The notes under the pieces are model-generated. The model was not told the origin of the DNA. It worked only from the letters and a program-made list of their open reading frames with translations, and ran no database searches. From a virus, in IMG/VR virus record IMGVR_UViG_3300021960_000054, positions 1 through 64,000 of that record: a stretch of 64,000 bases of DNA; one strand, 5' to 3'. The translations under genes were made by a program, and so were the position numbers. Positions 5,689 to 22,361 of the stretch are shown piece after piece (the first letter of the stretch is position 1; every line of letters begins with the position of its first letter).

Positions 5689-5719
5689 AAAGAAGTCAAG
5701 CAGAAACCACTTGACTTCT
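5689..5719 (-). terminator. Terminator hairpin whose 3' arm contains the -35 of the next promoter
   Basis: GAAGTCAAG-tggtttctg-CTTGACTTC-tttcttctttt; TTGACT-N17-TATACT upstream of the SleB gene. Confidence 0.65.
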
Positions 5720-5732
5720 CATTATTACCACC

Positions 5733-5951
5733 TTAGCGTTGTGAAACGAAAGAATTCATCTCATTTGCTAGTTTGCTGATATCACCGAATGTCGGAAATG
5801 TAGGCATTTCTGGAAACTGAACATCTAGTCCTGCTTCTTTGTCTGCATAGTATTTCTCTTTAATATTGCTGATATCAGTGTGATATTGCTCTGTGAGCAG
5901 TTGTTTAGCACTCTCAATCATAGAGAAGCGCAAATCGAATGGATTACTCAT
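5733..5951 (-). CDS. Small conserved phage protein
   Basis: MSNPFDLRFSMIESAKQLL...; AAGGAG RBS. Confidence 0.75.
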   Translation of the reverse strand: MSNPFDLRFSMIESAKQLLTEQYHTDISNIKEKYYADKEAGLDVQFPEMPTFPTFGDISKLANEMNSFVSQR

Positions 5952-5979
5952 ACTATTTCTCCTTGTGTGTATGTGTGTA

Positions 5980-6345
5980 AAATGTAGGGTGAAGCAATTG
6001 CTTCTTCTGTTTCCAGGCGCCCCTACGACACCCAGAAGATTATGCCGCTAGGCGAATATCTTCATATGCAATGTTATCGTTTGCATTTACTTTGTTTTGA
6101 CTTATTAGGCGGTCATCCCACAGTTCTACTCTTTCCTATTTACGTCAGTCGATCCTATTTCGCCCCCATCATAAGCACACTTCCGTGCCATATCTCTACC
6201 GAGATATCCAGGTTGTGGTTTCACCTTAATAAACTTTGAGACCCAATTTGCAAATGCTTCTAGCATGTTTACCTCTAGTGTGTTTATGGTGGAGGCGGTG
6301 GGTATCGCACCCACGTCCTGCCCGTCATTCAGATTGTATCAACAA
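5980..6345 (-). ncRNA. ssrA: Circularly permuted (two-piece) tmRNA; acceptor piece ~6345-6287, intervening segment 6286-6168, coding piece 6167-~5980; tag ANDNIAYEDIRLAA
   Basis: On the - strand, GGACGTGGGTGCGATACCCACCGCCTCCACCA (T-arm plus CCA) lies upstream of GGGGGCGAAATAGGATCGAC. The acceptor stem GGGGGCG/CGCCTCC has a G3-U wobble. The resume codon GCA at 6084 follows TAAAT and the tag stop is at 6040-6042. Outer ends are approximate. Confidence 0.93.
6126..6266 (-). CDS. 46-aa ORF starting in the tmRNA intervening segment
   Basis: GAGG-taaac-ATG; MLEAFANWVSKFIKVKPQPGYLGRDMARKCAYDGGEIGSTDVNRKE. Confidence 0.45.
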   Translation of the reverse strand: MLEAFANWVSKFIKVKPQPGYLGRDMARKCAYDGGEIGSTDVNRKE

Positions 6346-6352
6346 ACTGTAC

Positions 6353-6385
6353 ATTATATATAACATGCTTTGATGTAAATGTCAA
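6353..6385 (-). promoter_or_regulatory. Sigma70-type promoter for the tmRNA
   Basis: TTGACA-N17-TATATA(TAAT). Confidence 0.75.
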
Positions 6386-21459: not shown

Positions 21460-21546
21460 GCGCCCGTGGCGGAATAGGTAGACGCAACGGACTTAAAATC
21501 CGTTATCGATTACGGTGTGTGGGTTCGAGTCCCTCCGGGCGCACCA
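21460..21546 (+). tRNA. tRNA-Leu(TAA)
   Basis: GCGCCCG acceptor, ACGGA-ct-TAA-aa-TCCGT, long variable arm, GGTTCGAGT, encoded CCA. Confidence 0.93.
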
Positions 21547-21571
21547 AATATATATTACAAGGAGATGATAA

Positions 21572-21787
21572 ATGTTACACAAGATATCTGATTTATGTGA
21601 TAGAATTGATGCCATAAAGTTTCAAGCGGATAGATTGCGAGAAGCAAAATATGGTCCAAACAAAAGAGACGGCGCAGAAGTACAAGCACTCATTGATGAT
21701 ATTCAAGCGATGTGTTATACTGTTGCGAATGACAAATCGAAATACCAGAGAGTGTCTTACTTAGAAGGTGGACAGTTTCAAGAGTAA
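21572..21787 (+). CDS. Hypothetical protein
   Basis: AAGGAG RBS. Confidence 0.7.
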   Translation: MLHKISDLCDRIDAIKFQADRLREAKYGPNKRDGAEVQALIDDIQAMCYTVANDKSKYQRVSYLEGGQFQE

Positions 21788-21793
21788 AAGTAT

Positions 21794-21870
21794 CTGCCCG
21801 TAGTTCAGTTGGATAGAACAACGGATTTCTAATCCGTAGGCCGTGGGTTCGAATCCTACCGGGCAGGCCA
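21794..21870 (+). tRNA. tRNA-Arg(TCT)
   Basis: CTGCCCG/CGGGCAG acceptor, ACGGA-tt-TCT-aa-TCCGT, GGTTCGAATCC, CCA. Confidence 0.93.
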
Positions 21871-21874
21871 ATTT

Positions 21875-21948
21875 AGGGGAATGGTGTACTGGTATCACGG
21901 TAGTCTCCAAAACTACAGAATGAGGTTCGATTCCTTGTTCCCCTGCCA
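21875..21948 (+). tRNA. tRNA-Trp(CCA)
   Basis: AGGGGAA/TTCCCCT acceptor, GTAGT-ct-CCA-aa-ACTAC, GGTTCGATTCC, CCA. Confidence 0.92.
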
Positions 21949-21966
21949 AATAGATGAGGACGTAAC

Positions 21967-22284
21967 ATGAGTAATGCATACGGAAAAACAAGGTTCGATT
22001 TAGAACATGCGTTGAATGATATTCGCACAACGGCAACGGACATTCAGACTGTTGCGGATATGATGTACGACAGTACTCTTATCTATAATGAAGACCGAAC
22101 CCATACTGTTCTTAGTGGTCTAGCAGAAGTGTTAGAAGCAAAGTGTGAGAAAGCAGATATGATATTCAAAATGCTTTTTGAACTAGACGAATACAATCAT
22201 CAGTATTACAAAGATGCTGATGGAACTTTGCGTTGGCGAGACACAGACCAACCATTAGAGTCCCAACTGTGGGATAAAGTTTAA
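21967..22284 (+). CDS. Hypothetical protein
   Basis: GAGGA RBS. Confidence 0.7.
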   Translation: MSNAYGKTRFDLEHALNDIRTTATDIQTVADMMYDSTLIYNEDRTHTVLSGLAEVLEAKCEKADMIFKMLFELDEYNHQYYKDADGTLRWRDTDQPLESQLWDKV

Positions 22285-22361
22285 CGGAGATTAGCGCAGT
22301 CTGGTAGCGCATCTGCTTTGGGAGCAGAGGGTCGTTGGTTCGAATCCAGCATCTCCGACCA
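22285..22361 (+). tRNA. tRNA-Pro(TGG)
   Basis: CGGAGAT/ATCTCCG acceptor, TCTGC-tt-TGG-ga-GCAGA, GGTTCGAATCC, CCA. Confidence 0.95.

Follow-up and report, generated by a model that had tools for sequence, protein, structure and literature searches.

The permuted, two-piece transfer-messenger RNA (tmRNA) gene carried by IMG/VR virus record IMGVR_UViG_3300021960_000054 probably has a small protein gene nested in its intervening segment. The stretch analysed, called the window below, comprises the first 64,000 nt of this 72,046-nt record, whose completeness is estimated at about 40%; all coordinates refer to the window. We consider it likely that the 46-codon open reading frame (ORF) in the segment is a genuine gene, that the segment serves as an exchangeable cassette and that the lack of a stop codon inside it is a by-product of packing. 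The data show the anatomy of the ORF, its membership in a peptide family, purifying selection, the viral specificity of long coding segments, the exchange of cassettes and a stop codon whose position varies; translation, processing and the fate of the excised RNA are inferred.

Two-piece tmRNA genes are textbook stable-RNA genes, in which the spacer is treated as waste. ARAGORN places the gene of the window, a permuted alpha-type tmRNA with the tag ANDNIAYEDIRLAA*, at 5949-6381(-). Covariance-model scores exceed the curated cut-offs of both Rfam families, RF04321 (tmRNA_permuted; 111.7 bits against a cut-off of 47, at 6040-6348) and RF01849 (alpha_tmRNA; 109.7 bits against 50), and assign the gene to the permuted two-piece class. 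The order of the parts is permuted as well: the acceptor piece (T arm and 3' acceptor strand with its CCA end, 6287-6348(-), RF04321 model positions 1-64 and ARAGORN) lies upstream of the coding piece (5996-6167(-), ARAGORN and Rfam), whose tag frame at 6084-6040 has a hydrophobic degron end. The acceptor piece finishes with ...CCTCCACCA at 6287. Its CGCCTCC-A-CCA (6298-6287) and the first bases of the coding piece, GGGGGCG (6167-6161), make up a 7-bp acceptor stem, GGGGGCG/CGCCTCC, with G3:U70. The first base of this stem marks the RNase P cleavage site at the 5' end of the coding piece (6167/6168(-)) that would be expected from the tRNA-like structure. The 119 nt between the two pieces, 6168-6286(-), form the intervening segment, which would be removed on maturation as in known two-piece tmRNAs.

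The first-pass annotation of this locus had described a 119-nt segment with pairing ends, a ribosome-binding site and start codon just past the stem, an amphipathic N-terminus and a frame that leaves the segment without a stop, and each of these features is borne out. The ends of the segment (6286-6168), ATAAACACACT and AGTGTGCTTAT, pair at 10 of 11 positions, with one A.C mismatch. The Shine-Dalgarno (SD) core GAGG (6272-6275(-)) stands 5 nt upstream of the ATG at 6266, which opens 46 codons for the peptide MLEAFANWVSKFIKVKPQPGYLGRDMARKCAYDGGEIGSTDVNRKE. The ORF, recorded as P0020 in a public protein collection, spans 6126-6266(-); no in-frame stop occurs in the segment, and the first one, TAG at 6128-6126 in the coding piece, lies 39 nt past the predicted cleavage site. 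The helical hydrophobic moment of the N-terminus is 1.96 as against a shuffle mean of 0.76, a value reached by 0.04% of 5000 shuffles. Comparison with locus L196 and family alignments A1-A3 delimits a conserved core of codons 1-27 (6186-6266(-)), in which the amphipathic helix is followed by a PGYLG motif. A longer, 62-codon frame from GTG 6314, called as P0022, was rejected, because its start lies within the structured acceptor arm and has no SD, and relatives conserve the SD-ATG start. Taken alone, the window ORF is not beyond chance: in 2000 dinucleotide shuffles of the segment, an ATG-ORF of equal coverage arose 124 times, and 95 of these also crossed the site. It is the comparative evidence that lends the ORF significance.

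For this comparison, IMG/VR loci were collected by two exact stretches of the window's tmRNA (at least 120 matches each) and by the neighbouring PD-(D/E)XK nuclease protein (at least 80 loci, 12 of them with a tmRNA according to our detector), and at least 120 bacterial loci were found with the same 20-mer of the tmRNA. The detector requires the 5' motif of the coding piece, a perfectly paired 7-bp acceptor stem, a CCA end and a T arm. It returned 189 genes, 168 of them unique, in the window and 299 loci (L001-L299), and 96 genes in 120 bacterial loci.

Long coding segments are a viral trait. Among the matches listed, the segment measures 3-71 nt in 94 of the 96 bacterial tmRNA genes, whereas at least 90 nt are found in 83 of the 168 unique genes on viral contigs. 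Non-redundant viral segments of at least 90 nt number 58, of which 39 are AT-rich (G+C below 0.37) and 19 richer in G+C. A sense ATG-ORF fills at least 70% of the segment in 34 of the 39 AT-rich cases, as against 4 in antisense and a mean of 2.3 (maximum 7) in 200 dinucleotide shuffles; the 19 GC-richer segments show no ORF excess (4 versus 4 in antisense and 2.3 in shuffles). Of 35 ORF-bearing segments, 20 have an SD core at -17 to -4 relative to the start of the ORF; among the 158 other ATGs in the same segments, 18 have one. The sole long segments among the 96 bacterial genes, 116 nt in L417 and 174 nt in L412, may be prophage-borne or chance cases; the ORF of L417 covers 72% of its segment.

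The ORF of the window falls into one recurrent group of these nested peptides, family B. Its members are 26-62 aa long and consist of a hydrophobic/aromatic amphipathic N-terminal helix, a charged linker and a P-x-Y-L-S/G-G motif, in which Y21 and L22 are invariant in alignments A1-A3 and are followed by S/G-G. The window peptide agrees in length, helix, linker and Y-L motif. Its start is also placed as in the family: in 18 of 18 loci, the window included, family B begins at segment position 16-20, directly after the 5' arm of the stem that closes the segment, and is preceded by an SD. The first-pass annotation had proposed to ask whether ribosome-binding site, ATG and frame recur in homologous loci, and they do, as part of a conserved and selected peptide family in tmRNA intervening segments.

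Protein searches extended the family. A profile search of a 5.8-billion-protein collection gave 49 family B matches of 29-79 aa, and HMMER, run exhaustively against 1.84 billion representatives, returned 23. In the profile search, the record of the window itself, P0020, scored E = 1.9e-8, with a profile that included the window ORF; independent support comes from relatives such as P0006 (1.1e-10). One of the HMMER matches, the 726-aa repeat protein P0050, looks spurious. Of the 47 sequences read (32 + 15), many have either a head such as GAVPTASTINTLE..., which is a translated acceptor arm, or a tail such as YDGGEIGST(D), a translated coding piece; such heads and tails reveal that these peptides, too, are located in tmRNA genes. 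Judging by these flanks and by the collected loci, family B is apparently found only in stem-closed intervening segments of two-piece tmRNA genes of aquatic T4-like phages. The window, with a G+C content of 36-41%, a tRNA cluster (ARAGORN) and T4-like neighbours, has this character. The family also has a member in a cultured phage, as Methylophilales phage Melnitz (MZ577097.1) contains an unannotated 54-codon family B ORF (L001:1392-1556(+)) within its annotated ssrA, reading through the predicted RNase P site. This ssrA was the only match in the phage genome collection.

Substitution patterns show purifying selection on these ORFs. Between the window and L196, all 27 core residues are identical and all 7 nucleotide differences are synonymous; the ratio of nonsynonymous to synonymous differences per site (pN/pS, Nei-Gojobori method NG86, with codons in the 3' stem arm excluded) is 0.05, as against 1.31 and 2.14 in the out-of-frame controls. 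The other groups gave 0.28 (family A, 7 sequences), 0.38 (A2), 0.28 (C, 10 sequences), 0.42 (D), 0.12 (E), 0.16 (F), 0.27 (L082 group) and 0.31 (Melnitz group). Out-of-frame controls were mostly near 1, the frame+1 control being low for the L082, Melnitz and D groups, and the pair L097/L220 was uninformative (0.69, with 7 differences only). Altogether, substitutions are mainly synonymous in 8 of 10 groups (pN/pS 0.05-0.31), while D and the L097 group of family B show little contrast.

Conservation of this kind might in principle reflect RNA structure or processing signals in a frame that is not translated. The segment does contain conserved structure. Its closing stem consists of a 5' arm TAAACACACT (6277-6286(-)) that pairs with 6181-6172 at 9 of 10 positions and is contained in the minimum free energy fold, and a 3' arm AGTGTGCTTA (6172-6181(-)) followed by the unpaired TGAT at 6171-6168, as seen in the fold and in a pairing survey. 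The stem is supported by covariation: in 113 segments of at least 60 nt, a mean of 10.7 of 12 positions are paired, as against 8.4 with shuffled partners, and 107 of the 113 have a 4-nt unpaired 3' tail. The A.C mismatch of the window is a perfect pair in the near-identical contig L183. In addition, a 7-bp hairpin, AUAUCUC GGUA GAGAUAU at 6188-6209(-), overlaps the conserved Y-L-G codons, and both differences that L196 shows there preserve pairing through G.U wobble pairs. Yet this hairpin is absent from other subfamilies that retain the YL motif, and the segment as a whole is no more strongly structured than its shuffles (z = -1.08), which fits a role as messenger. The concentration of synonymous changes in 8 of 10 groups (with the limits just given for D, the L097 group and the frame+1 controls), the restriction of ORFs to the sense strand (34 versus 4), the enrichment of SD cores before the start and the 24-nt insertion of the Melnitz group, which is in frame, likewise argue for translation, and we regard an explanation by RNA structure as extremely unlikely.

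The closing stem itself differs between families in its relation to the start signal. In family C and some family A segments (for example L032, L043, L058 and L078), the SD lies inside the 5' arm, with AAAGGAGATT pairing with AATCTCTTTT, so that the ribosome-binding site would be sequestered once the stem forms. Unlike in family C, the SD of the window sits just outside the stem.

Comparison of the window with its relatives shows that the segment behaves as an exchangeable cassette slot and that different tmRNA backbones carry different small genes. In L220, the two tmRNA pieces are 100% and 99% identical to those of the window, while the segment is only 63% identical and encodes a different family B subtype. 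The reverse holds for L196, where the start of the segment is 92% identical and the tmRNA pieces 77% and 68%. The L196 segment is much longer (388 nt) and contains a second gene, for a family F membrane protein, which overlaps the family B gene by GTGA; L196:2678-2800(-) and the rest of its segment form a two-gene mini-operon. The 499-nt segment of L016 is arranged comparably, with an ORF of 120 codons behind its family B gene. Two peptides are mosaics: P0051 combines a family A N-terminus (MDEVILWEFRK) with a family B C-terminus (..IPKYLSGKRGMME), and P0046 an L097-like N-terminus with a C-terminus of the window type. They suggest recombination inside the cassettes.

About 265 nt of the L196 segment are missing from the window, a sign that its cassette has been shortened. 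The missing part includes 14 native C-terminal codons together with the stop (...HRVHSVKYEDLCK*) and the family F gene, and it could be argued that the window copy is a decaying, nonfunctional remnant. With L183, only 1 nt different, as the sole other copy of this variant, selection after the truncation is not measurable. Even so, the copy has kept its SD, its ATG and all 27 codons of the core, every one of the differences from L196 is synonymous, and in other subfamilies the peptide is naturally just as short and stops immediately behind the YLG motif (L082, 29 aa; L042, 27 aa; P0060, 26 aa). Decay is therefore an improbable explanation in our view.

Where the ORF stops is variable, and this bears on the possible self-substrate feedback loop proposed in the first-pass annotation. 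Read as a selected circuit with arfA-like logic, it would have the precursor give the full peptide and the RNase P cut turn the segment into a non-stop mRNA whose product is tagged by the tmRNA it came from, and the dose of the peptide would be coupled to maturation and ribosome rescue. A precedent is the mRNA of arfA, which has no stop codon and is kept in check by trans-translation (PMC10107115). The layout is present in the window, and a truncated product would still hold the whole conserved core. Moreover, 28 of the last ORFs of all families (n = 71) cross the RNase P site; 19 end at the TGA at -4, within the conserved TGAT and one base before the site, and 24 stop 10-19 nt (in one case 35 nt) earlier.

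The closest relatives of the window ORF nevertheless carry a stop of their own. L196, P0018, P0021, P0035, P0046 and P0049 continue as ...GYLGRDMA(K/Q)HRVH..KYEDLCK*, and P0064 ends in ...GYLGRDMAKK*; among the relatives examined, only the window's own records (P0020 and P0022) and L183 are of the GYLGRDMA type without a stop. Across family B, 7 of 18 loci read through to +39 (the window, L183, L097, L220, L001, L126 and L213) and 11 stop inside the segment (L196, L041, L042, L082, L145, L205, L218, L016, L147, L157 and L279). At segment position -15 to -13, which is in frame, TAG is found in 15 of 30 arms of the window's type and serves as the stop of the L082 group, family F and others, whereas AAG (6180-6182(-) in the window) occurs only in the window and L183. 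Stop position is mixed within 3 of 26 clusters, with family B, the window subfamily and family G among the mixed groups. Clusters without their own stop use the three available frames (TGA at -4, TAG at +10, or later) about equally, as would be expected if translation ends at the first stop that the tmRNA happens to offer. The crossing of the RNase P site in the window thus looks like a tolerated by-product of tight packing and a recent accident, not a selected sensor. These results do not support a conserved, selected device; what stands of the earlier proposal is that the excised segment would be a non-stop mRNA if cut at 6168/6167, which follows from established tmRNA and RNase P biochemistry, while the stop-free layout that it requires is not conserved in the nearest relatives. 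We consider a selected circuit unlikely for the window.

Several observations weigh against our preferred reading of a small protein gene whose stop-less state is incidental. In the L097 type, the stop-less layout is constant and in the same frame in 10 of 10 clusters as well as in P0054 and P0058, and the same applies to the Melnitz type (6/6). All 7 members of family A stop at +10 although they are deeply diverged (pS 0.73), and the layout is also constant in A2 (3/3) and E (4/4). It is at least stably tolerated there, and a selected role in those lineages is possible. The window variant itself occurs in at least two contigs (the window and L183), so it is neither an assembly error nor obviously deleterious. 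As to the evidence for a gene, translation and the processing sites are predicted, and the RNA-library data consist of assembled contigs only. All proportions among loci come from samples of the matches listed, and the count of about 26 ORF clusters includes a few doubtful ORFs in GC-richer segments. AlphaFold gave a poor model with alignment A2 (mean predicted local distance difference test score of 59), in which the N-terminal helix 2-14 alone is moderately confident. Finally, searches for a function found no Pfam, PHROG or PDB family match. With the window ORF, Pfam returned 0 matches at E up to 0.1. With 19 family members at E up to 10, Pfam gave nothing credible, as PF04528 (2/19, E = 0.024) and PF25220 (1/19) look like chance. 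A single match for one protein (E = 0.08) was obtained in PHROGs, PDB sequence searches gave chance matches only (calcium-channel peptides, Fab chains), and the best score in the ESM Atlas, 0.86, was under the level of a lead, sulfotransferase entries there being disregarded.

If the gene is expressed as its anatomy suggests, it would be transcribed from the tmRNA's own promoter as part of the precursor. A promoter-like site, TTGACA (6385-6380), a 17-nt spacer and TATATA (6362-6357), precedes the tmRNA at 6357-6385(-) and would place the start of the precursor about 85 nt upstream of the ATG. It was read from the sequence, and its function is presumptive: a consensus promoter scan did not list it, the second hexamer lacking the final T, and the region aligns with the 5' leader of the Rfam alpha_tmRNA model. 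Ribosomes would bind at GAGG-N5-ATG, immediately downstream of the closing stem's 5' arm. They could do so as soon as the SD emerges, at a time when the coding piece needed to complete the acceptor stem is still untranscribed. The precursor would then act as messenger before maturation or in competition with it. While a ribosome occupies codons 34-46, the acceptor stem's 5' strand would be covered, so that translation and recognition by RNase P would exclude each other on one molecule. In the window, with AAG instead of TAG in the arm, translation would continue through the RNase P site to the first in-frame stop of the tmRNA at +39. After cleavage by RNase P, the excised, stem-closed RNA without a stop would stall ribosomes and become a substrate of trans-translation, yielding a tagged peptide.

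As to the role of the peptide, family B might comprise phage-made modulators of ribosome rescue, either partners or antagonists of tmRNA-SmpB or an Arf-like back-up unrelated to it in sequence. Their dose would be set by tmRNA maturation in the stop-less lineages (window, L097 type and Melnitz type): they would be tagged and destroyed when trans-translation works and accumulate when it fails. We offer this as a speculation that is very unlikely to be correct as it stands. No likeness to ArfA was found, which also speaks against an arfA-like circuit: apart from the empty Pfam result for the window ORF, PF03889 is absent in the 19 family members (E up to 10), hhalign gives a probability of 0.09% against E. 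coli ArfA, and there is no ArfA chain among the PDB matches. An ArfA-style loss of the stop by processing is predicted for the window from its anatomy, but it is not conserved in the closest relatives.

Parallels to known systems are partial. The stop-less mRNA of E. coli arfA is produced by RNase III cleavage, whereas the window would rely on RNase P at a tRNA-like structure. The two are unrelated in sequence, and the stop-less state is not kept in the window subfamily. Both are small peptides, and in the window, too, RNA processing would remove the stop and the product would become a substrate of tmRNA (PMC10107115). ORF-bearing intervening sequences of 23S rRNA, such as the one of Coxiella burnetii that encodes S23p, a protein that is probably not made, resemble the segment as a coding frame in a part excised from a stable RNA without splicing (PMC4990558). 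They differ in RNA and enzyme, and in the tmRNA slot many unrelated small genes under purifying selection take turns. Other cargo of tmRNA genes includes homing endonuclease genes in group I introns and, within intervening sequences, a tRNA-Ala gene and a repetitive element; these cases show that cargo is tolerated, and the passages available describe no small protein gene in the intervening sequence (PMC11915505).

The closest known relatives in form are the ssrA of OM43 phage Melnitz and the permuted tmRNA of Alphaproteobacteria (RF04321, RF01849), with the same sequence of CCA acceptor piece, segment and coding piece and the same ANDN...LAA tag (PMC9004378, in part). The literature passages treat the segment as a discarded spacer (PMC9004378), and the Melnitz records contain no coding sequence inside ssrA. 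The Melnitz paper, in the sections available, reports a two-piece ssrA and a downstream glutamine riboswitch and no ORF in the segment (PMC9004378). The accessible text of 'Ends of the line for tmRNA-SmpB' (PMC4131195) has no occurrence of 'intervening' or 'ORF'. No description of a protein gene within the intervening segment of a tmRNA turned up in our literature search, which did not extend to most subscription journals.

If phages routinely use the spacer as an expression slot, annotation has missed a class of real genes, including one in the cultured phage Melnitz. One and the same transcript would then face two competing fates, as messenger or as RNA precursor. Roughly 40% of such genes end in the mature tmRNA, and in their case stop-less messages would arise naturally when RNase P cuts. 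How translation, processing by RNase P and trans-translation interact could be tested directly in this natural setting, and Melnitz would be a tractable system. For the window itself, we take the gene to be probably real, whereas its stop-less state looks accidental.

Six metatranscriptome runs contain part of the stretch; the four analysed (X15, X16, X18 and X20) consist of assembled contigs, which carry no information on ends, strand or level, and stretches without coverage have no weight. Most of these contigs cover only the conserved stretch 6146-6181 and diverge on both sides of it, and they therefore come from other tmRNAs. The shared stretch suggests a large diversity of related tmRNA genes in the estuary, marine and salt-marsh samples. 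One 210-nt contig from X16 (record 14) covers 6186-6316 and spans the junction between CCA and segment, and its match ends at the very point of divergence between the window and L196. This contig resembles L196 and could derive from carried-over DNA.

Downstream of the tmRNA, a 72-codon ORF from the ORF list (5733-5951(-), no Pfam match) has the same orientation and probably belongs to the same transcription unit. A scan found a terminator-like hairpin of 14 pairs with a T run at 5690-5720(-). Together, promoter, tmRNA with nested gene, 72-codon ORF and terminator-like hairpin have the look of a compact unit. The glutamine riboswitch located downstream of the Melnitz tmRNA is absent from the window. 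SmpB was not found in the 72 kb of the phage record, which is uninformative at a completeness of about 40%. Four tRNA genes (Leu-TAA, Arg-TCT, Trp-CCA and Pro-TGG) are clustered at 21460-22361(+).

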